Shown piece by piece: positions 3,803-29,495 of a DNA stretch of 32,000 nucleotides. The notes under the pieces are model-generated. The model was not told where the DNA came from and searched no databases. It saw only the letters and a list, made by a program, of their open reading frames with translations. The DNA lies in NCBI GenBank assembly GCA_000091165.1, contig FP565575.1, forward strand, positions 2,100,001 to 2,132,000, given 5' to 3'. Made by a program: the position numbers and the translations under genes. Every line of letters starts with the position of its first letter. The stretch's first letter is position 1. The DNA is from Candidatus Methylomirabilis oxygeniifera (lineage in GTDB: Bacteria; Methylomirabilota; Methylomirabilia; Methylomirabilales; Methylomirabilaceae).

Positions 3803-4567
3803 TTACGCCGCTTTTTTCTTGCGTCTCACATACAGCACGGCGCCGATTCCCACGCCGGCAACCGTCATCACCAAAATTGCCGGATTGCTCATCATGGACG
3901 GACCGCGCGCGCCCCCCCCCCTGGGTGTCTTCAATCCGACGGTAAAGGGGAAGCTGAAGGTCGAATCGTGTGCATGATACGCCTCCTCTTCCGCTGTACT
4001 GGTATGCTGCTCGGCGCCGTCGTGACTGTGACTGACCGCCTCCGGTGCGTCGCCTCCGGCACGTGATCTCGCTCCCTGCTCCTCAACCTCCAGTACCGCC
4101 CTATACTTCCCGGCTTTTCCGAAATCCGTCTCAGCCCGCACGACACCTGAAGGATAGACCTGTTGAGGGATATACAGAACCGTTTGGGCGTCTTCACGCT
4201 CGGTGGCCTCGACGACGCGGACCGCCACAGGGGTCTTTCGCAGGGCATCGCTGATAAGATCAAACGTCAGCGTCGCCTTTCCTGTTCTTGGAATATCCCG
4301 ACAGTAGGATTGAAACTCTTCCTTCATCGCATCCACGTACCGCCTCAGGTCCGCATCCTTAAGCTCTTTGAGCTGAGCCAGCTGTGAGGCCCGGTCCGCC
4401 GTCCCATGCTGATAGGCGCTGAAGTGAATGAGATACTGCCCTTTCTCCCTCGAACAGAGATCGTTCTCCGTGATCCCACCCATGCCGCCGCCACCGTGAG
4501 CCCATGCCTGCGACGCTCCCATCACAGCCATCAGCGCTACAACTCCAATCGAAACACACTGCTTCAT
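3803..4567 (-). CDS. Secreted, C-terminally membrane-anchored His-rich protein; putative PmoD/AmoD-like periplasmic copper protein (paralogue 1)
   Basis: 254 aa. The signal peptide ends ...GASQAWA and is followed by HGGGG. It carries C38-x7-L-x-H48, EFQSYC, a His/acidic linker (SHSHDGAEQH..YHAHD), SFPFTVGL, one C-terminal TM helix and RRKKK. It lies 300 nt downstream of pmoB on the same strand and has a paralogue at 25467-26243. Confidence 0.85.
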   Translation of the reverse strand: MKQCVSIGVVALMAVMGASQAWAHGGGGMGGITENDLCSREKGQYLIHFSAYQHGTADRASQLAQLKELKDADLRRYVDAMKEEFQSYCRDIPRTGKATLTFDLISDALRKTPVAVRVVEATEREDAQTVLYIPQQVYPSGVVRAETDFGKAGKYRAVLEVEEQGARSRAGGDAPEAVSHSHDGAEQHTSTAEEEAYHAHDSTFSFPFTVGLKTPRGGGARGPSMMSNPAILVMTVAGVGIGAVLYVRRKKKAA

Positions 4568-4969: not shown

Positions 4970-6238
4970 CTATTTGTACTGGGTAGTCGGCCGCCATTTG
5001 CCTCCGCCGGACAGGGCCGTTGCGCCACCCTCGAAGGACGGAATGACCGGGCCGCCGACCTCAACAATTTGTCTGTTCTTATCCGCATCAAAGAACTCAA
5101 AGAGTCCGCCGTACCGGCTGTCTGAGTCATAGATCAACTCAGCCAACCGCTGATATTCCCATTCCGCATCGGTCGCATCTATCGACATCGTTACGGTCTG
5201 GCCTGGAGGGATGGGACCGGCCGGCTCCACCTTGATTTTGAGTCGCGAGTCAGGGAAGAGGGCCGGATCCCGAAACTGCAGGTTGGCCGTGATGAATCCT
5301 CCCAATTGCTGAGGCCTGTTTGAACCGTTTGTGACCTCTATCACCATCCCAAGAGAACGTCCAGGTACGGTATAGACCGCTGTGACAGGCCTGGCCTTCA
5401 CCGTGGCATGGGAATACGGCGTAAACTCTGTCGTGGGCTTCAGTTCGGGAGTATCCATCCGACCGGTCTGCAGCGGGATGGTGATTGGGTAGGCGCCGTT
5501 CGTCGTGACGTAGCCGATAGCGACGATGAGGACCGTGGCGATCATCAGTACGAGTCCAAGCGTCCGATCGCCGGGGCTAACAAGCTCCTCCTCAGGTACC
5601 ACTCCCACCTGGAAGAGACGTCGCGTAAATGGCCGTCGTACCCACCACAGCAACCAGAACACACCGACAAAAGTCCAGAGGAGCCACCAGCCGATGATCC
5701 GACCTTGCCCATGGACCTCCATATTCACTGTCGTACCATCAATGGTGGTAACGTTATTGGTGAAGTTACTCCAGTCGCCATCGACGGTGACGAACTCGCC
5801 TCCACCGACCAGGGGCCCTCCACCCTCGATATTCACCATCGGGTGAACGTGATAGGTCCCGGTGACCCGGCCCATAATATTCATTCTATAATCATAGTCT
5901 CCGCCAAGTTGAGTACTGGTGGCGTTGATGACCGGCATGCCATTCATCCATGCCTCTTTCTTGAGCATTGATGGCCCAGGCACGGAGTAATGGAGAAAGA
6001 TCGATTCGGGGGTGTTTACGGCCCTCGGCCATTCACTAAATGTATGGAACTTTCCCGTCAGATCCATGGTCTCGCCAGGCTGTACCCGAGCTTTTGACCA
6101 TTTCGTATCGTAGAACGTTATTGTACGCATCCGAAGAAACGGCTCTTGCGATCGCTCGCCATGCGCCCATGCCGTTCCAGCGGATACGGCGATCACTCCA
6201 AGCAAGATCGCCGACAACGCCGCTCGTCCTATCCTCAT
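4970..6238 (-). CDS. pmoB: Particulate methane monooxygenase subunit B (PmoB)
   Basis: The start was moved to ATG 6238 (GGGAGGAT SD 5 nt upstream) within ORF 4970-6295. The signal peptide ends ...SAGTAWA, then HGERSQEPFLRMRT. It has the YHVHPM His motif, two TM helices (WWLLWTFVGVFWLLWW and LGLVLMIATVLIVAIGYV) and a C-terminal cupredoxin-like domain. Confidence 0.95.
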   Translation of the reverse strand: MRIGRAALSAILLGVIAVSAGTAWAHGERSQEPFLRMRTITFYDTKWSKARVQPGETMDLTGKFHTFSEWPRAVNTPESIFLHYSVPGPSMLKKEAWMNGMPVINATSTQLGGDYDYRMNIMGRVTGTYHVHPMVNIEGGGPLVGGGEFVTVDGDWSNFTNNVTTIDGTTVNMEVHGQGRIIGWWLLWTFVGVFWLLWWVRRPFTRRLFQVGVVPEEELVSPGDRTLGLVLMIATVLIVAIGYVTTNGAYPITIPLQTGRMDTPELKPTTEFTPYSHATVKARPVTAVYTVPGRSLGMVIEVTNGSNRPQQLGGFITANLQFRDPALFPDSRLKIKVEPAGPIPPGQTVTMSIDATDAEWEYQRLAELIYDSDSRYGGLFEFFDADKNRQIVEVGGPVIPSFEGGATALSGGGKWRPTTQYK

Positions 6239-6348
6239 CGTTATCCTCCCAGGTTCGTGGGTAAGCGTCAACACATTCGCATCATAGCGCCACATGGGGT
6301 TGCCTTATAGCCTTCCATCGAGAACCCCACGGCCCACATCGATGACAA

Positions 6349-7080
6349 CTACGTCCGCGAGATCCATGCCGGCCTTGAGATTACCTTCCCCATCCACACC
6401 CACCAGAGGTAGATAATTCCACTAATAAATCCGGCGAAGAACGAGGAAACCGGCGTAACGTCGCGCCCGAATGTTCGCAGCGTCCCCCGCTCCACGATTC
6501 GGATATACTCCGGCGTGGCGGAGCGCACATACTCCATCCCCATCAGATCAGCGATGGACATGAGCGGCCCGCTGGGATGCTTCACGGCCAAATGAAATGG
6601 CGCCAGCCAGGTCCAGTTCGCCGGATAGAACAACAGGGACCACCCCATGCCACCGAACAGTGCCGTAAACATGTAGCTTCCCGTCATCATCAGCATCACG
6701 TCCAGGAAGATCGCACTGGGGATCATCAGACCCGGGGCGGTAAAATTGACCGGAAACCAGGCCCAATAGTAAAAGTTAAAGACACGATTCATCCATTGTC
6801 CGAAGTGAAGCGTCATCACGCAAAAGGTCGCACCGATCGGCAGACGCATCTTCTCCCACATGAAATATTGCGTCGCCGCAGGGAAGGTAATCAACAGGAT
6901 CGGCGTCAACGTGACCCACCAGCGCCGATCCTTCCAGTCCAGCCAGAAGTCCCAGTCGCCAACGGTCAGCATCTGGTGGATGTGGTACCCCGCAACTGTA
7001 CCTGTGAACGCAGCCACTATGACAATAATATCAAACTTGCGCTCCAGGCTTAGAGCTTGCTGTTGTGTCAAAAGCGCCAT
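6349..7080 (-). CDS. pmoA: Particulate methane monooxygenase subunit A (PmoA)
   Basis: The start was moved to ATG 7080 (GAGGAGGGG SD) within ORF 6349-7143. The product is a 243-aa polytopic membrane protein with the characteristic ...MLTVGDWDFWLDWKDRRWWVT... motif. Confidence 0.95.
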   Translation of the reverse strand: MALLTQQQALSLERKFDIIVIVAAFTGTVAGYHIHQMLTVGDWDFWLDWKDRRWWVTLTPILLITFPAATQYFMWEKMRLPIGATFCVMTLHFGQWMNRVFNFYYWAWFPVNFTAPGLMIPSAIFLDVMLMMTGSYMFTALFGGMGWSLLFYPANWTWLAPFHLAVKHPSGPLMSIADLMGMEYVRSATPEYIRIVERGTLRTFGRDVTPVSSFFAGFISGIIYLWWVWMGKVISRPAWISRT

Positions 7081-7186
7081 AAGCTCTTCCCCTCCTCGAA
7101 GGGAGGGGGGGGGAGCAACCACCCCCCCTCCACATTTGGTCATGTAGACTTTGGGGACCTCAAAAAACGATCCTCAACGAGTATCG

Positions 7187-7963
7187 TTACGCGGTCGCCT
7201 TACCACCGCTGGTGATCCTGATCAACTCAAAGATCCGCGGACACATCGCCGCCGCCACGCCATACACCCCAAACAGACACCAACCCAGCGTGACAAAGCC
7301 CCAATGCAGCGGCGCCACAAACAGCTCTTCCATGATCCAGAAGGTGTGACCCCACTCGTTCAGCGCGACATTGACAAAGATCATCGCAGGGCCGCCGACC
7401 GTGAGCATGAACGGGATCGAGTGGGCCTTCGAAAATAGGGGGAGTCGGGTCCGGGCCCACATGTAGGCGCTAATCCCGATGATGATGTAGATCGGGTAGC
7501 TGAGATAGAACTCAATGATGTGGCTCGGCGTAAAGTCCGTATCGCGGATCACCGTCTGGTGCCACGTCCCGTCCTGCTCGGTAAAGAAGCTGGCGCCCCA
7601 ATACACCGCCCAGGCGAACGTCGCGATCCACTGCCCGAGACCCCAGAACCGCCTGAGCTCCTCCTCCGGCGTAATTTTATCGAGGTTCCGGTCGCGAGTC
7701 TTCCAGATGTACCCCAGGGCGAAGGTCAGCACCGCCCCCTCGATAATCAACTCCCCGATCAACATGTTCCACCAGTAGATCCGGAAGTCCTCGGAGAAGA
7801 AGTCGAGGCCTTTCGACCAGGAGAAGTACTGCTGGTAAATCCGAATCATAACGTAGAAGATGCTAATAGCTATCTGACATTTAAAGAAGGTGCCCCAGCC
7901 AAACATCTGCTCGACTGACTCGGCGCGCTTAGCCGGCGCAGCTTCCGTCCTGTACTGTGCCAT
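7187..7963 (-). CDS. pmoC: Particulate methane monooxygenase subunit C (PmoC)
   Basis: 258 aa, with AAGGAGGAAGG SD before ATG 7963. Conserved PmoC motifs RDTDFTPSH and NEWGHTFWIMEELFVAPLH are present. Gene order C-A-B is canonical. Confidence 0.95.
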   Translation of the reverse strand: MAQYRTEAAPAKRAESVEQMFGWGTFFKCQIAISIFYVMIRIYQQYFSWSKGLDFFSEDFRIYWWNMLIGELIIEGAVLTFALGYIWKTRDRNLDKITPEEELRRFWGLGQWIATFAWAVYWGASFFTEQDGTWHQTVIRDTDFTPSHIIEFYLSYPIYIIIGISAYMWARTRLPLFSKAHSIPFMLTVGGPAMIFVNVALNEWGHTFWIMEELFVAPLHWGFVTLGWCLFGVYGVAAAMCPRIFELIRITSGGKATA

Positions 7964-8155
7964 TTGATCCTTCCTCCTTACGCTCTGAACATGTTACATA
8001 ACGTAGACGGCACTACTCTAAGACCGCACTTCCCCTTACTTTCTCTTGACGCCGATTCTCACCTCCTTTGTCGCCACTGACGTAACAGGTTGAGGTTTAC
8101 GGTCGTTGTTGCTCAACAAAATCGCTCTTTGGAAACCTTGTTCTAAGAAGATGTT

Positions 8156-8185
8156 AGCATATGTCGCGATTGAAACACCTGTCAA
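8156..8185 (-). promoter_or_regulatory. Sigma-70-like promoter in the pmoC upstream region
   Basis: Minus strand reads TTGACA (8185-8180), 18-nt spacer, TATGCT (8161-8156). It lies about 190 nt upstream of the pmoC ATG. Confidence 0.4.
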
Positions 8186-8276
8186 GTCCTTTTTGCCTTC
8201 CGAACCCTGTTCCAACCTTGATCACATTGACACCTGCATCCGAGCAATACTGAAGACAACACTAAGACTTTAATAC

Positions 8277-8291
8277 GCAAGGATGGTGCCA
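8277..8291 (-). promoter_or_regulatory. Sigma-54 (-24/-12) promoter upstream of pmoCAB
   Basis: Minus strand reads TGGCAC-catcc-TTGC, an exact match to the TGGCAC-N5-TTGC consensus. It lies about 315 nt upstream of the pmoC ATG and 131-154 bp downstream of a repeated palindrome. A sigma-54 activator gene is adjacent. Confidence 0.6.
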
Positions 8292-8421
8292 AACGTAGTG
8301 GCAATCGGTATTGAGCCTACTTTCACCAGTGAAATCAAGAGGTTCAAATAGTGACTTCAAAGAAACGCCATGGGTCGCAACAGAATTTCTAGTTAATTTT
8401 CATTAGAACGCCCCACCCTGC

Positions 8422-8445
8422 GACAGCTGTCCCACCACAGCTGTC
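8422..8445. promoter_or_regulatory. Tandem ACAGCTGTC palindromes; candidate enhancer (UAS) for the sigma-54 promoter, or a terminator-like hairpin of the regulator gene
   Basis: gACAGCTGTC (8422-8431) and ACAGCTGTC (8437-8445) are 14 bp apart, start to start. Together they can also fold as an 8-bp stem (gacagctg/cagctgtc). They lie directly after the regulator stop codon. Confidence 0.35.
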
Positions 8446-10116
8446 TCAGACTGAGTCAATCTGCGTCTGTCGTTTCAGACCAAACTGCTCCAGTTTGCGA
8501 TACAGCGTACTGCGGGAGATGCCGAGCTGGGCCGCGGCCTGCGACAAATTCCCCGCACATTGCTGGACGATCTGACAGATGAGCTGCCGTTCGGTCTGCG
8601 CGAGCCAGCCGCCGGGCTCCGGCCGCTCGGAGGCCTCCCCGCGCAGGGTGCGAATCGCCTCGGGAAAGTCGTCCCAGCGGATCTCGGGCCGCGGCAGGAG
8701 CACGCCCACCTGCTGCAGGACATTGCGCAGCTCCCGGACATTGCCGGGCCACGGATACGGGGTGAGCGCGAGCGCGCGCAGCGCCTCCTCCGTAAAGCGC
8801 AGGTCCGGGCAGTGCAAGGCGGCGGCGACATCGGCCAGGAAGGAGGCCGCCAGCAGGGGGATATCCTCCCGCCGCTCCCGCAAGGGCGGCAGGTGGATCG
8901 AAATGACATTGAGCCGGTAGTACAGGTCCTCCCGAAACAGCCCCTTGGCCACCTCTTTGAGCAGGTCTTTATTGGTCGCGGCGATGATGCGGACATCGAG
9001 GGGGACCGGCTGGCCGCTCCCTAGTCGGGTGAGCTCCTGCTGCTCCAGCACCCGCAGGAGCGCCACCTGGGTGCTGGGCGAGCACTCGCTGACCTCATCG
9101 AGGAAGAGGGTGCCGCCCTGGGCCTCTTCGAACCGGCCCGACCGGCCGCCTTTGCGCGCGCCGGTAAAGGTGCCGTCTTCATAGCCGAACAGCTCAGACT
9201 CGATCAGCTCCCGGGGGATGGCACCGCAGTTGACCGCGATGAACGGCTTGGGGGCGCGGGGGGAGCTGGCGTGGATCGCATGCGCGAGCATCTCTTTCCC
9301 GGTCCCCGATTCCCCGGTGATGAGGACGGAGAGGGTGTTGCCGGCGGCGATGAGGCCGATCTTGGTCGCGTTGCGGAAGGCGGCGGACTGCCCCACCAGA
9401 TCGGCAAAGGTGTACTTGGCCCCCACCACGATCGCCTTGGGCTTGCGGGGGACGGGCGGCTCCAGTCGGGCGGTCGGAAAGAGCACGGCGGCGGCGACCA
9501 CCTGCGAGCCGTGCCGGAGCGCCAGGCCCCAGGCCGTAAGGAGCCGGCCGCTACGCCCGCAGTAGACCTTGACCTCCTGGGGGCTGGAGGGGGCACGGGT
9601 CAGCAGGGTGCGGCCGACCTCGGCCAGCTCCGGGATCGCCGCGACGGAGGGCCGGGCGGGGTCGAGCTGCAGCAGGTGCGCGGCGGCCCGATTGCACAGC
9701 AGCACCTGCCCCTGCGGATCCAGCACCAGCAGGCCGTCGCTGAGCAACTCCGCGGCGGCGGTGAGCGGCCCCAGCAGCGCCTCGGCAGCGCGCGCCGGCG
9801 GGACGTCGGGCAACGGCGGGGCGAGGAGCGAGCCGGCTAAGAGCTCGATCACCAGATCGCTTTGGACGTGGGTGCGGCAGAGCAGGACGTGGCCCTGGGC
9901 CTGCTCGCTGGCGGAGAGCACGTGATCCGGCGGCGCGACCAGGTGGGCCTGGCCGCTGCGGAGGCGGGCCTTACAGCCCCCGCACTCGCCGTCCGCGCAG
10001 CGGTAATCGACCAGGCGCAGGCCCTGGCGCAGGGCGACCTGCAGGACCGACTCGGTGTCGTCACACTCGATGGTGATGCCCAGCGGTTCAAACCGGACCT
10101 TGCGCATCCGCGTCAT
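8446..10116 (-). CDS. Sigma-54-dependent transcriptional activator with N-terminal 2Fe-2S ferredoxin-like domain and PAS-like sensor region
   Basis: The N-terminus has C-ADGE-C-GG-C ... LLC (a plant-type Cx4Cx2C..C pattern). A PAS-like LLVLDPQGQVLLCNRAAAHLL follows. The AAA+ domain has Walker A GESGTGKE, GTFTGA (a GAFTGA variant) and GGTLFLDEV. The C-terminal Fis-type HTH is LSQAAAQLGISRSTLYRKL. ATG 10116 has AGGAG 9 nt upstream; an alternative GTG at 10182 overlaps the helicase stop (GTGA). Confidence 0.9.
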   Translation of the reverse strand: MTRMRKVRFEPLGITIECDDTESVLQVALRQGLRLVDYRCADGECGGCKARLRSGQAHLVAPPDHVLSASEQAQGHVLLCRTHVQSDLVIELLAGSLLAPPLPDVPPARAAEALLGPLTAAAELLSDGLLVLDPQGQVLLCNRAAAHLLQLDPARPSVAAIPELAEVGRTLLTRAPSSPQEVKVYCGRSGRLLTAWGLALRHGSQVVAAAVLFPTARLEPPVPRKPKAIVVGAKYTFADLVGQSAAFRNATKIGLIAAGNTLSVLITGESGTGKEMLAHAIHASSPRAPKPFIAVNCGAIPRELIESELFGYEDGTFTGARKGGRSGRFEEAQGGTLFLDEVSECSPSTQVALLRVLEQQELTRLGSGQPVPLDVRIIAATNKDLLKEVAKGLFREDLYYRLNVISIHLPPLRERREDIPLLAASFLADVAAALHCPDLRFTEEALRALALTPYPWPGNVRELRNVLQQVGVLLPRPEIRWDDFPEAIRTLRGEASERPEPGGWLAQTERQLICQIVQQCAGNLSQAAAQLGISRSTLYRKLEQFGLKRQTQIDSV

Positions 10117-10178
10117 CCTCGTGGACTCCTGGGGGGTCCCCTGCCGTCCGGCGGGCACGCCGGACGGCATCGGGGGGC

Positions 10179-11402
10179 TCACGCCCCCTCGGTTTCCGCC
10201 GACTTTCGACCCTGGCGCACGCTATTCGCGGCCACCGCGGCACCGGCAGCTACCCCTGGGGCAAACGCCGATTCGTCCGGCCACTGCACAGGAATCTTAA
10301 ACCCGATGTACCGCTCGATCGCATCAAGCGACAGCACATATTCCTCGTCAGCCAGACTGATCGCCTTACCGGCTGCCCCGGCCCGCGCCGTTCGTCCGAT
10401 CCGGTGGACGTAATCTTCCGGGTCCTGCGGGAGGTCGTAGTTGATCACGTGACTGACCGCCTCAACATGCAACCCACGCGATGCGACATCGGTCGCCACC
10501 AGGATCGGCAGCGTGCCCGCTTTGAACTTGGTGATAATCTGGAGGCGCTTACGCTGATCGATGCTACCGCTGATCAGGCCCGCCCGGAAGCCGCACCGGA
10601 CCAACTTATCAGTGAGCCGCTCGGCGCCCTGCCGAGTATTCGAAAAGATCAGGATCCGTTGCCACGCCTCGCGCTGAAGCAACCAGCGCAACAGCCGGAA
10701 TTTTTCCTGCTTCTCGACGTGAAAGAGCAGATGTTCAACCTTGTCGACCGTAACCTGTTCCGGGGAAATGGCGACCTTAATCGGATTATTCATAAACTCG
10801 TACGACAGCTCCATCTCTCGAAATGAAAGCGTCGCCGAAAACAGGAATGACTGACGCTTATGGTAGGGGGGGAGCCGCCTCAGCAGGAAGCGAAGGTCCT
10901 TGATGAACCCCATGTCGAACATCCGGTCGGCCTCGTCCACAACCAGGACTTCGACTTGAGAGAGTTCGTAGACCCCCTGCTTGAAGTAATCGATGAGCCG
11001 CCCGGGTGTTCCGATGAGGATATCGACGTTCTGTTGAAGCGCGTCCCGCTGTTTCTGATAGTCCACCCCTCCATAGGCTGCGAGCCGTGTCAGGCCGGTG
11101 AATCCACCCAACAACTCCGCATCCCACAGGATCTGCACGGCCAGCTCACGCGTGGGCGCCAGGATCAGGGCTCGGGGGGCGCCGGAAAGCGTAGGGTGTC
11201 TTGAAGTGAGTAGTCTGACAAAGAGGGGGATCAGGAAAGCGGCTGTCTTACCGCTGCCGGTCTGAGCTTGCCCGGCAATATCTTTCCCCGCCAGGGCGAG
11301 CGGCAGCGTCTCAGCCTGGATCGGTGTACACTGAGTAAAACCGGCCGCCTCTATTCCCCTCGCGATCGACGCGGGAAGTGAAAAGGTGTCGAAGGTCGTC
11401 AT
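10179..11402 (-). CDS. DEAD-box ATP-dependent RNA helicase
   Basis: 407 aa. Motifs seen: Q-motif ...GFTQCTPIQ, AQTGSGKT, PTRELA, DEAD, SAT and HRIGRTARAG. Confidence 0.92.
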   Translation of the reverse strand: MTTFDTFSLPASIARGIEAAGFTQCTPIQAETLPLALAGKDIAGQAQTGSGKTAAFLIPLFVRLLTSRHPTLSGAPRALILAPTRELAVQILWDAELLGGFTGLTRLAAYGGVDYQKQRDALQQNVDILIGTPGRLIDYFKQGVYELSQVEVLVVDEADRMFDMGFIKDLRFLLRRLPPYHKRQSFLFSATLSFREMELSYEFMNNPIKVAISPEQVTVDKVEHLLFHVEKQEKFRLLRWLLQREAWQRILIFSNTRQGAERLTDKLVRCGFRAGLISGSIDQRKRLQIITKFKAGTLPILVATDVASRGLHVEAVSHVINYDLPQDPEDYVHRIGRTARAGAAGKAISLADEEYVLSLDAIERYIGFKIPVQWPDESAFAPGVAAGAAVAANSVRQGRKSAETEGA

Positions 11403-11498
11403 GCACCGCTCCCGGCCACGACAATCTCAGCAGGTCGTCCCGCGAAGCGTGCGCTGATCAGTCGATTGTGTCGTGCTGGCATAGACATACTTATTCTT

Positions 11499-11527
11499 AT
11501 TATGCCTCTCATAATGGGGATTGACAA
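11499..11527 (-). promoter_or_regulatory. Sigma-70-like promoter for the helicase operon
   Basis: Minus strand reads TTGTCA (11527-11522), 17-nt spacer, CATAAT (11504-11499). This is about 95 nt upstream of ATG 11402. Confidence 0.35.
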
Positions 11528-11549
11528 GGTAAATCGGTTGTGGTAAAAA
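11521..11549 (+). promoter_or_regulatory. Sigma-70-like promoter for the lipoprotein gene, back to back with the helicase promoter
   Basis: TTGACA (11521-11526), 17-nt spacer, TAAAAA (11544-11549), preceded by TG. Confidence 0.3.
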
Positions 11550-11713
11550 AACTCGTTTCGTTTTTGAGTGGCCCGATGTCGTCTTGAAGATCGTACGGAA
11601 AGGTGATTATTGAAGCCTGGCCGTTGATCCCCTCCTCGATGGCCCGCCATCCGGGACGCGTTGTTTGGAGCTTGGGTTTTTTTTTAACACTTTAACTTTC
11701 TACGGAGGTGACA

Positions 11714-28037: not shown

Positions 28038-28067
28038 TTGCATTGTCGAGGATCAATACGATACAAT
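28038..28067 (+). promoter_or_regulatory. Sigma-70-like promoter for hao, overlapped by a 7-bp inverted repeat
   Basis: TTGCAT (28038-28043), 18-nt spacer, TACAAT (28062-28067). The inverted repeat GCATTGT..ACAATGC spans the -35 to the -10. Confidence 0.55.
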
Positions 28068-28133
28068 GCCGTCTATCCGGAGAACAATCATCGTCCGTTC
28101 GGCGGGATGCAGGAAAAGCCGGGACACGTTGTC

Positions 28134-29495
28134 ATGAGGCATAGCAATCGAAGGTGGAAATGGCGACTGGTTCTCGCAGTCGCTGCCTTGCTCGCGGCCG
28201 CACTACCGTGGGGTTCAGCCGTAGCGGCGGACCGCCCGTATTTGTCGCATGGGGCCGGCGCCTATCGGGATCAGTGGCAAGCACCCTCGGTCTATCAATG
28301 GCTCGATCCGAATCTCTTTACCTCCAACAATCCCATTCAGGGGGTCTTCAACGGGGAGGCATGTGTTGCCTGCCATGCCGGGGTTACGCCGACGATCGTC
28401 AACGATTGGAAAATCAGCAGACACGCGCCGGCCAAGGTCTACTGTACGGCCTGTCATGGCAACGACCACCAGAAGCTCTCCATGCCGAAACCGGAGACCT
28501 GCGAAGGGTGCCACAAGACCCAGGTCTCCCAATATAAGGAGGAGTTGAAAGCCGGCCACCCGGCTCATGCGCGCGCCATGGACCCTGACGTATATCGCAA
28601 TGCATGGCAGATGCATAAGCCGCAGGCCGAGGTCGTCGGATGCGCCCAGTGCCATCGGATCGGGAGCGTCGGGTGCGATAGCTGCCACACGCGCCATAAA
28701 TTCTCGGCGGCTGAAGCCCGCAAACCCAGCGCGTGCATGAGCTGTCACAGCGGGGTCGATCATCGGGACTACGAGGTCTGGGAGAACTCCAAGCACGGCA
28801 ACATCTGGCAGGCTGAGACACAGGACACGGATTGGACCACGCCGCTCCAACGCGGTAACTACCGGTTCCCCACCTGCGCCTACTGCCATATGCCCGGAGG
28901 CGACCACAACACGGTGCGTAACACTGTCTATGCAGGCATGGGGACACAGGAGGTCAACCGCGGGGCGCCGGAACATCAGGCCAAGCGGGACCGGTGGATC
29001 GGAGTATGCGGCGATTGCCACTCCTCCAGATTTGCTCGAGCACAGCTTGATTACATGGATGAAGCCGTCAGCGTCAGCTTCAAGAAGGTGCGGGAGGCAA
29101 AACGGATTCTCGAGGATCTGTACAAAGAGGGGATCATGGAACCGATGCCGCAGTTCCTGGCCCCAGGATGGAAGGGCGGGCATGCGGCGGCCTTTGGCGG
29201 CATGAACTATAACGTTCCGGCCATCGAGCGGCTCTTTTATGAAATGGTCGCCTTTGCCACCACTAATACGTTTAAAGGGGCGGCGCACGGCTCAGGCGGC
29301 GCCGCCACGTATACCTTCGGCGCCTTCGAGGCCGACAAGTACCTGGCCGCCATCAAGAGCGAGGCCGAGAAGATGCGGCGGATGGCCAAAATCGAACAGA
29401 AGGTCGGCGTGCCGTATCAACCGTCAGAGTTCTGGAAGCACGGCGAGTACACCGATACCCTCAAGGTTATCAAGGAACCGAAAGATGAGCGCTGA
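28134..29495 (+). CDS. hao: Octahaem cytochrome c, hydroxylamine oxidoreductase (HAO)-like
   Basis: Eight CxxCH motifs: CVACH, CTACH, CEGCH, CAQCH, CDSCH, CMSCH, CAYCH, CGDCH. The signal peptide is MRHSNRRWKWRLVLAVAALLAAALPWGSAVAA. A ...CGDCHSSRFARAQLDYMDEAV segment is typical of HAO. ATG 28134 was chosen (alternative 28107); the track start 28038 coincides with the predicted promoter -35. Confidence 0.9.
   Translation: MRHSNRRWKWRLVLAVAALLAAALPWGSAVAADRPYLSHGAGAYRDQWQAPSVYQWLDPNLFTSNNPIQGVFNGEACVACHAGVTPTIVNDWKISRHAPAKVYCTACHGNDHQKLSMPKPETCEGCHKTQVSQYKEELKAGHPAHARAMDPDVYRNAWQMHKPQAEVVGCAQCHRIGSVGCDSCHTRHKFSAAEARKPSACMSCHSGVDHRDYEVWENSKHGNIWQAETQDTDWTTPLQRGNYRFPTCAYCHMPGGDHNTVRNTVYAGMGTQEVNRGAPEHQAKRDRWIGVCGDCHSSRFARAQLDYMDEAVSVSFKKVREAKRILEDLYKEGIMEPMPQFLAPGWKGGHAAAFGGMNYNVPAIERLFYEMVAFATTNTFKGAAHGSGGAATYTFGAFEADKYLAAIKSEAEKMRRMAKIEQKVGVPYQPSEFWKHGEYTDTLKVIKEPKDER

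Follow-up and report, generated by a model that had tools for sequence, protein, structure and literature searches.

A sigma-54 activator with a predicted [2Fe-2S] ferredoxin input domain encoded beside pmoCAB in Candidatus Methylomirabilis oxygeniifera

A gene on the minus strand of a 32,000-nucleotide stretch of the genome of Candidatus Methylomirabilis oxygeniifera (contig FP565575.1, positions 2,100,001 to 2,132,000; the whole stretch is called the window here, and positions are counted from its first letter) encodes a sigma-54-dependent transcriptional activator that begins with a plant-type ferredoxin domain and is followed on the same strand by pmoCAB, the operon of the particulate methane monooxygenase (pMMO). 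Judging from the sequences, we hold with moderate confidence that the protein is a one-component enhancer-binding activator of pmoCAB that would sense through an iron-sulphur (Fe-S) cluster of its own. The architecture of the protein, its rarity, its linkage to the pmo genes and the presence of a plausible target promoter are established, and the observation was confirmed to be more than a product of chance.

The ferredoxin input domain and the activator modules

The N-terminal domain (residues 10-84, counted from the methionine start discussed below; 9865..10089, minus strand, as are all parts of the protein) was assigned to the plant-type [2Fe-2S] ferredoxins of the beta-grasp fold by several independent comparisons. 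Pfam detected Fer2 (PF00111) with an E value of 5e-11 and 42.8 bits against a gathering cut-off of 21, at amino acids 32-106 of the 578-amino-acid open reading frame (ORF); all Pfam coordinates are given in this numbering, and subtracting 22 converts them to the methionine-based numbering of the 556-amino-acid protein. When the N-terminal 242 residues were compared by phmmer with all sequences of the PDB, the top match was 1JQ4, the [2Fe-2S] domain of MmoC, which is the reductase of soluble methane monooxygenase (E 6.5e-10), and later matches included a P450 reductase, T4moF, BenC and plant ferredoxins. A model of residues 1-240 made with AlphaFold2 from a 125-sequence alignment had a predicted local distance difference test score (pLDDT) of 79 overall and of about 90 over residues 1-100, and Foldseek placed its first 92 residues or so on solved plant-type ferredoxins with a root-mean-square deviation of 1.5-2.5 A and a TM-score of 0.73-0.83.

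The four predicted cluster ligands, identified from the family alignment and from the alignment with MmoC, are arranged as C-x4-C-x2-C-x31-C (9877..9999) and comprise Cys40 (9997-9999), Cys45 (9982-9984), Cys48 (9973-9975) and Cys80 (9877-9879). They align with Cys42, Cys47, Cys50 and Cys82 of MmoC at identical spacing. Of 23 aligned family members one lacks Cys48, and all have Cys40, Cys45 and Cys80; when the nearest Fer2 homologues are included (125 sequences), the four cysteines, one glycine and one leucine are the sole invariant columns. The first-pass annotation, made from the letters alone, had suggested a ferredoxin-like N-terminus and named two computational findings that would speak against it, namely a different fold and cysteines that vary among orthologues. 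Neither was found: the Pfam match, the PDB match to the MmoC domain and the AlphaFold2 superposition agree on the fold, and both alignments agree on the cysteines. A Fer2 profile score above threshold, four cysteine ligands within C-x4-C-x2-C-x(29-31)-C and the beta-grasp fold are thus all present, and the N-terminus is a ferredoxin fold, as modelled and aligned, with conserved predicted cluster ligands.

The closest database relatives of this domain are the N-terminal Fer2 domains of Fer2-FAD-NAD reductases (45-50% identity). Pfam found no FAD- or NAD-binding domain in the protein of the window, in which Fer2 is fused instead to PAS, AAA+ and helix-turn-helix (HTH) domains, and it is therefore not an oxidoreductase.

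The fusion had been thought unusual in the first-pass annotation, and the database searches agree with this. A search with the full-length protein returned about 23 protein clusters of 65-97% identity, in which all full-length members carry both PF00111 and PF00158 and whose named sources are Methylomirabilis, Methylomirabilota or NC10, with the exception of one partial sequence labelled Verrucomicrobiae. Below this family the score drops sharply from 744 to 320 bits. The sequences that follow are generic activators whose inputs are receiver, GAF or PAS domains, and PF00111 was found in none of the approximately 95 of them listed there. Additionally, an exhaustive HMMER scan of the N-terminal 240 residues against 1.84 billion representative proteins, evaluated for the best 150 of 1624 Fer2 matches, returned a single full-length activator cluster (P0025) and no other activator, a scope that leaves room for more distant Fer2-activator fusions; a short fragment (P0004) covers the ferredoxin domain only, as do the remaining matches. 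The ten longest or oddest Fer2 matches were considered as further activator fusions and rejected, being Fer2-FAD-NAD reductases, some of which were called together with di-iron hydroxylase subunits, a DsrC fusion or unrelated proteins. As far as seen within these searches, therefore, only one family carries the fusion, which appears to be rare and restricted to the Methylomirabilis/NC10 lineage. The automatic name given by JGI to one member, a machine annotation, already reflects the domain composition, and our literature search found no paper on ferredoxin-domain activators or on the GTFTGA loop described next.

The remainder of the protein is that of a sigma-54 activator. The sigma-54 interaction AAA+ domain (8893..9399; Sigma54_activat PF00158, amino acids 262-430, E 6e-66) carries the Walker A motif GESGTGKE (9292-9315) and the Walker B motif TLFLDEV (9091-9111), and it is followed by an AAA+ lid domain (8632..8880; AAA_lid_14 PF25601, amino acids 435-517, E 2e-19) and a Fis-type HTH DNA-binding domain (8482..8604; HTH_8 PF02954, amino acids 527-567, E 7e-13) whose recognition region hardly varies within the family. 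The AAA+ module and the Fis-type HTH had both been recognised in the first pass, and the motifs quoted there (CADGECGGC...LLCRT, GESGTGKE, GTFTGA, TLFLDEV) were all found in the protein. An AAA+ domain with Walker A and B motifs and contact loop, a C-terminal HTH and a cognate promoter with a candidate upstream site place the protein among the enhancer-binding proteins. NCBIfam recognised only the generic AAA+/HTH part, with matches to PrdR, PrpR, NtrC, NifA, NorR, DhaR and TyrR; because all of these lie far below the family cut-offs, the protein falls outside every named orthologous group.

The loop that contacts sigma-54 reads GTFTGA (9157..9174), a variant of GAFTGA for which a check of compatibility with sigma-54 had been advised. 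A motif scan detected GTFTGA in 23 family sequences, which share it with the protein of the window; within the family GAFTGA was confined to P0020 and P0034, and the genes of these two (loci L012 and L004, respectively) stand in the usual arrangement of helicase or unknown gene, activator and pmoC. Outside the family, GSFTGA occurs 22 times and GTFTGA twice (in the unrelated activators P0058 and P0102) among 114 sequences with a recognisable loop. Position 2 is thus naturally A, S or T among the 114 sequences, the F-T-G-A core is invariant in the family, and GSFTGA has been treated as compatible with activation in a regulome study (PMC4641369). GTFTGA is a natural variant and is very probably functional.

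Between the ferredoxin and AAA+ domains lies a PAS-like domain (residues ~109-213; 9478..9792), supported by weak Pfam matches to PAS_8, PAS and PAS_4 and by the topology of the AlphaFold2 model, which has helices and five strands over residues 110-215 with a pLDDT of about 80. The PAS_8 match (amino acids 142-177; 22.6 bits, cut-off 21.8) covers only the N-terminal part of the domain, and a weak match to the PAS domain of DhaR (4lrx, E 0.089) was also observed. A full-length AlphaFold2 model on the 23-sequence family alignment had a mean pLDDT of 46 and was usable for the PAS-like region only. No invariant cysteine or obvious cofactor residue was found at residues 109-213 in 23 sequences. In place of the several PAS-like segments of the first-pass annotation, the protein has one PAS-like domain.

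The limits of the gene also had to be revised. The ORF list and its translation give 578 codons from a GTG (8446-10182, minus strand), which is the span first proposed; the ORF stands, and the start moves to the ATG at 10116 (MTRMRKVRFEPLG), which gives a coding sequence at 8446..10116 of 556 amino acids plus stop. This is almost certainly the true start, because the N-termini of nearly all orthologues match there and an AGGAG lies 9 nucleotides upstream. The motif MTRxRKVRFEPLG opens nearly all of the 22 aligned orthologues (P0012-P0033); a few begin 2-3 residues later, and P0023 and P0034 have long N-terminal extensions. The in-frame 5' extension up to the GTG (10117..10182) is probably untranslated, judging from the orthologue starts and from its poor conservation in L001 and L002. 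The GTG end of the longest ORF overlaps by 4 nucleotides the stop (10179-10182) of the upstream DEAD-box helicase gene (10179-11402), and this overlap is an artefact of ORF calling and no sign of translational coupling; in reality about 62 nucleotides separate the two genes in the window, and 99-435 nucleotides lie between the genes in the orthologous loci.

Linkage to pmoCAB and the regulatory spacer

As the first-pass annotation had noted, the activator gene adjoins pmoCAB. The next genes on the same strand are pmoC, the first gene of the presumed target operon (7187..7963; Pfam AmoC, E 9e-93), pmoA (6349..7143; AMO, E 3e-95) and pmoB (4970..6295; Monooxygenase_B, E 9e-121). The order activator-pmoC was also found in eight other loci (L001, L004, L005, L006, L008, L009, L011 and L012), or nine with the window. 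In L011, a metagenome contig, the gene upstream of activator-pmoC-pmoA (3-467) encodes a NarJ-like nitrate reductase chaperone and replaces the DEAD-box helicase, which indicates that the activator stays with the pmo genes regardless of its upstream neighbour.

The first-pass span covers the gene only, and the regulatory DNA lies beyond it, at 8156-8445. The spacer between the activator stop codon and the pmoC ATG, 482 nucleotides long in the window, was aligned for eight sequences (the window, L001, L004, L005, L008, L009, L011 and L012; the contig of L006 ends too early). It contains a sigma-54 promoter, TGGCACcatccTTGC (8277..8291, minus strand), a perfect match to the -24/-12 pattern TGGCAC-N5-TTGC. 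This is the only perfect match in the window, where 0.01 would be expected by chance, and TGGYAY-N5-TTGC is present in every pmo-linked locus with readable DNA. The longest invariant run of the spacer alignment is TTGGCAyyATCCTTGCGT, and the DNA that flanks it has diverged among these sequences, in which the activators share 65-97% identity. Seven of the eight have 155-158 nucleotides between the stop codon and the -24 element, and L001 has 167. The predicted sigma-54 transcription start lies near 8265, about 300 nucleotides upstream of the pmoC ATG.

A candidate upstream activator sequence was found just beyond the activator gene (8423..8444, minus strand). It consists of two ACAnnTGT palindromes, ACAGCTGT-GGTGGG-ACAGCTGT, of 8 base pairs each, separated by N6 and thus 14 nucleotides apart, and the pair begins 2 nucleotides past the activator stop codon, about 145 nucleotides upstream of the -24 element, which is the usual place for an activator site. 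The paired arrangement is unique in the window (0 expected by chance). The ACA..TGT..CA core is invariant in the eight pmo-linked loci, and the central bases change together in both copies (CAGCTG twice in the window, CAGGTG twice in L001, CATATG twice in L012). The pair falls inside 8292-8445, the stretch that the first-pass annotation had named for footprinting. We infer that the HTH domain binds it. The link between the activator and the pmo genes proposed at the outset is supported: in these loci the two are joined by a spacer with a conserved sigma-54 promoter and a candidate upstream site.

Two further elements accompany them. The DNA that separates the promoter from the candidate activator site holds an IHF-like site, AATCAAGAGGTTC (8333..8345, plus strand), with 12 of 13 matches to WATCAANNNNTTR; its CTTG core alone is invariant in the orthologous loci, so that the support for it is weak. 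About 92 nucleotides downstream of the sigma-54 promoter, a consensus scan detected a sigma-70-like promoter, TTGACA-18-TATGCT (8156..8185, minus strand; 10 of 12 matches), with a predicted leader of about 185 nucleotides. Its -35 element CTTGACA is invariant in the eight loci and its -10 element is less conserved, and pmoC therefore appears to have tandem promoters.

Two other candidates were rejected. A second sigma-54 promoter within the palindrome pair, TGGGACAGCTGTCGC (two mismatches in the window, one in L007), was discarded because L004 and L012 lack the GG and because, in L001, GG and GC stand one base too close together. Upstream of its activator gene L007 has a sigma-54-like site (9901-9915, one mismatch), for which the corresponding part of the window showed no counterpart within two mismatches.

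The leader of pmoC includes a highly conserved block, GTTACGTCAGTGGCGACAAAGGAGGTGAGAATC (8054-8086, minus strand), with a strong Shine-Dalgarno-like sequence about 100 nucleotides before the pmoC start. A search for an RNA element in this leader gave no Rfam match and only a weak consensus fold, in which hardly any covariation was seen.

Other features of the region were also recorded. Directly downstream of pmoB a gene (3803-4567, minus strand) encodes a protein of 254 amino acids that carries a signal peptide and a stretch rich in His and has a membrane anchor at its C-terminus, and that had no Pfam or NCBIfam match; at the same position L004 has a gene of similar size without a Pfam match and L009 a truncated one. 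The other uncharacterised proteins of the neighbourhood likewise gave no match in NCBIfam or Pfam. A called ORF of 41 codons overlaps the 3' end of pmoB in L004 (6098-6223) and L009 (7021-7146). About 18 kb from the pmo operon, a gene for a multi-haem cytochrome c was found in the window (28038-29495, plus strand; Pfam Multi-haem_cyto, E 8e-48).

Proposed regulation of pmoCAB and competing explanations

Cluster binding, the nature of the signal and DNA binding by the activator are put forward here as hypotheses. In the mechanism that we propose, the HTH domain would bind the paired palindromes just past the activator's own stop codon, and the AAA+ ring would contact sigma-54 RNA polymerase at the -24/-12 promoter, possibly helped by bending at the IHF-like site. 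ATP hydrolysis would then open the promoter, giving a pmoCAB transcript with a leader of about 300 nucleotides. The input signal would be the state of the N-terminal [2Fe-2S] cluster, most likely its oxidation state or, alternatively, its damage by NO or O2; it would be relayed through the PAS-like domain and would allow or prevent assembly of the AAA+ module, in the way known from other activators whose ATPase is controlled from the N-terminus. The downstream sigma-70-like promoter probably provides expression independent of the activator. A reversible redox switch is favoured over cluster destruction because the closest relatives of the domain are O2-tolerant one-electron carriers in monooxygenase reductases; this preference is a judgement, and we offer it as a guess. 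The proposal is supported by the intact Walker motifs and FTGA core, the fixed distance between promoter and palindromes and the conserved gene order of activator and pmoCAB. Moreover, activator genes usually adjoin their sigma-54 promoter, according to Kazakov 2015 as cited in PMC8359166.

Several points weigh against this proposal. The conserved sigma-70-like promoter could drive pmoCAB without the activator. A second copy of the activator gene occurs at a non-pmo locus without a recognisable downstream sigma-54 promoter (L007, L010), and it is accompanied by the palindrome pair, so that autoregulation or another role is possible for these repeats. In mutants of NtrC the alanine in the second position of GAFTGA is important, and electron-transfer ferredoxin domains are usually stable to O2, which counts against the proposal in its cluster-damage variant. 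The rpoN gene is not within the 32-kb window, and the proteobacterial pMMO has been tied to sigma-70, in distinction from soluble methane monooxygenase, which is under sigma-54 control (PMC8782848). On the supporting side, NtrC-type receiver activators with the canonical GAFTGA are encoded in a genome that shares 90% DNA identity with the window over the syntenic region, and these imply that sigma-54 is in operation. Our literature search returned nothing on Methylomirabilis rpoN or on sigma-54 control of pmoCAB.

The second copy bears most directly on an explanation that we consider unlikely, in which the protein is a genuine sigma-54 activator for which pmoCAB is not the main or only target, its targets being a wider regulon, its own gene or the neighbours of the second copy, and pmoCAB is expressed mainly from the sigma-70-like promoter. 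GCA_040960765.1 encodes the activator twice. One copy (L008) is pmo-linked and has the context of the window (dxr, pgm, groES/EL, helicase, activator, pmoC), and the other (L007) lies inside a 1.43-Mb contig, between a pair of genes for a sensor kinase and a response-regulator activator and a gene for an outer-membrane-like protein, which is followed by the alternative complex III genes actABCDEF. The two copies share a duplicated segment of 1819 nucleotides (9893-11711 in both L007 and L008) with 99.6% DNA identity, from 108 nucleotides upstream of the ATG to 34 nucleotides beyond the stop, with the palindrome pair included. The non-pmo arrangement is repeated in L010 (262-1929), whose downstream protein is 77% identical, and L002 (4232-5934) shares its thrS-side flank with the non-pmo copy; one genome thus shows near-identical copies, and two other assemblies have loci syntenic with the non-pmo one. 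Compared with the L007 copy the L010 copy is only 73% identical, whereas its identity to a related lineage's pmo-linked copy reaches 97%. The copies cluster by lineage and not by locus, and they would therefore have been homogenised within lineages, probably by gene conversion.

The retention of the palindrome pair at both kinds of locus, the repeated non-pmo arrangement and the invariant -35 element of the sigma-70-like promoter fit an activator with other targets. Against it, no sigma-54 -24/-12 match was found downstream of the non-pmo copies, whereas in eight loci the invariant promoter of the pmo-linked spacer keeps a constant spacing from the repeats, and in the window this promoter is the sole perfect match. 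The second copy leaves the evidence from the pmoC promoter unweakened, although the regulator need not be dedicated to pmo.

Slightly less probable again is the explanation that the ferredoxin domain is a docking or electron-accepting module that reports on a partner such as a reductase or monooxygenase, or a mere structural dimerisation cap. Its nearest relatives do dock onto partners for electron passing (MmoC, T4moF, BenC and the Fer2-FAD-NAD reductases of soluble di-iron monooxygenases), and the PAS-like domain could then be the real sensor. However, the four ligand cysteines are kept across the family, which suggests that the cluster itself is under selection; no conserved partner gene adjoins the activator gene, whose neighbours are the helicase, narJ or thrS; and the PAS-like domain lacks conserved cofactor residues.

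TyrR and Rhodobacter NtrC act without sigma-54, and the loop of all but two scanned family members departs from GAFTGA next to a conserved sigma-70-like promoter, but we find it highly improbable that GTFTGA abolishes sigma-54 contact and that the protein works independently of sigma-54, for instance by repressing or activating the sigma-70-like promoter, since two members of otherwise the same architecture and locus have the canonical loop, Ser or Thr stands at position 2 in many other activators, the F-T-G-A core is invariant and a perfect sigma-54 promoter is conserved alongside.

We therefore retain the reading of the protein as an activator of pmoCAB with its own Fe-S sensor. A fuller version of it can be drawn up, which is speculative and in our view on the unlikely side. 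According to this version, the input domain was derived from the ferredoxin of an MmoC-like reductase and still exchanges electrons with the electron supply of the monooxygenase; its oxidation state would report the balance of reductant and internal O2 or NO and would tune pMMO through the sigma-54 promoter above constitutive sigma-70 expression, and the gene-converted copies would set dosage. If this were true, the protein would be the first dedicated transcription factor for the particulate methane monooxygenase and the first sigma-54 activator with a ferredoxin fold as a redox switch.

Comparison with known regulators and electron-transfer proteins

The closest precedent in function is OrpR (DVU2106) of Desulfovibrio vulgaris, in which a [4Fe-4S] cluster held by three cysteines within a PAS domain gates a sigma-54 activator, and which its authors described as the first Fe-S-sensing sigma-54 activator (PMC8359166). 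Both proteins are one-component regulators with an N-terminal sensory region, an AAA+ domain and an HTH, and the gene of each adjoins one or more sigma-54 promoters; Fe-S gating and the involvement of IHF are known for OrpR and proposed here. In contrast to OrpR, the cluster predicted here is a [2Fe-2S] on four cysteines in a separate beta-grasp domain that precedes the PAS-like domain, and the targets are pmoCAB and not the orp operons; the phyla also differ. The cluster cysteines borne by the PAS domain, which define the OrpR type, have no counterpart in the family, whose 23 sequences have no invariant cysteine in the PAS region.

MmoR is the sigma-54 activator of the soluble methane monooxygenase genes, and to our knowledge it has no ferredoxin domain. 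Both MmoR and the activator described here are sigma-54 activators encoded beside methane monooxygenase genes; MmoR serves the soluble di-iron enzyme of proteobacteria, whereas the gene studied here lies beside those of the particulate copper enzyme. On the side of electron transfer, the input domain resembles the Fer2 domains of MmoC (also known as MMOR; 1JQ4), T4moF (4WQM), BenC (1KRH) and GcoB (5OGX), but in the activator this domain is fused to PAS, AAA+ and HTH domains, and the FAD_binding_6 and NAD_binding_1 domains that mark the MmoC class are absent.

Two further systems are similar in their mode of control. PexR of Myxococcus xanthus is a single activator that acts on tandem sigma-54 and sigma-A promoters (PMC12754779). 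In PexR and NorR an N-terminal metal-centre domain autoinhibits a sigma-54 activator, and the gene on which PexR acts has tandem promoters, as pmoC apparently does; the metal centre is a mononuclear Fe or Zn in a GAF domain in those proteins, and an Fe-S cluster in a ferredoxin fold is predicted here. SoxR switches transcription activation according to the oxidation state of a [2Fe-2S] cluster, which is itself retained. Such redox-state switching is the mode proposed as most likely here, although SoxR belongs to the MerR family, acts on sigma-70 promoters and holds its cluster on a short C-terminal Cys motif and not in a ferredoxin fold.

The regulation of pMMO is poorly understood, and a dedicated pMMO regulator was not found in our literature search. 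Here, pmoCAB has a strongly conserved sigma-54 promoter beside the gene of a lineage-specific activator, which makes this protein, on the present sequence evidence, the first candidate regulator to be matched with a sigma-54 promoter at an operon of the particulate methane monooxygenase. The host lineage comprises nitrite-dependent methane oxidisers, which are thought to make their own O2 from NO, and the only distinctive feature of the activator is its predicted [2Fe-2S] ferredoxin domain. This suggests a concrete and testable molecular connection of methane oxidation with redox, NO or O2 status, the parts of which are the protein, its four cysteines, the 22-bp candidate site and the promoter, and which might be of use as a redox-responsive genetic switch. 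What is new is the ferredoxin-fold input on a known kind of regulator, as Fe-S sensing itself has a precedent in OrpR. For the sigma-54 field, a complete electron-transfer ferredoxin would here have been recruited as a probable sensor, which extends OrpR, the lone characterised Fe-S precedent that we found.

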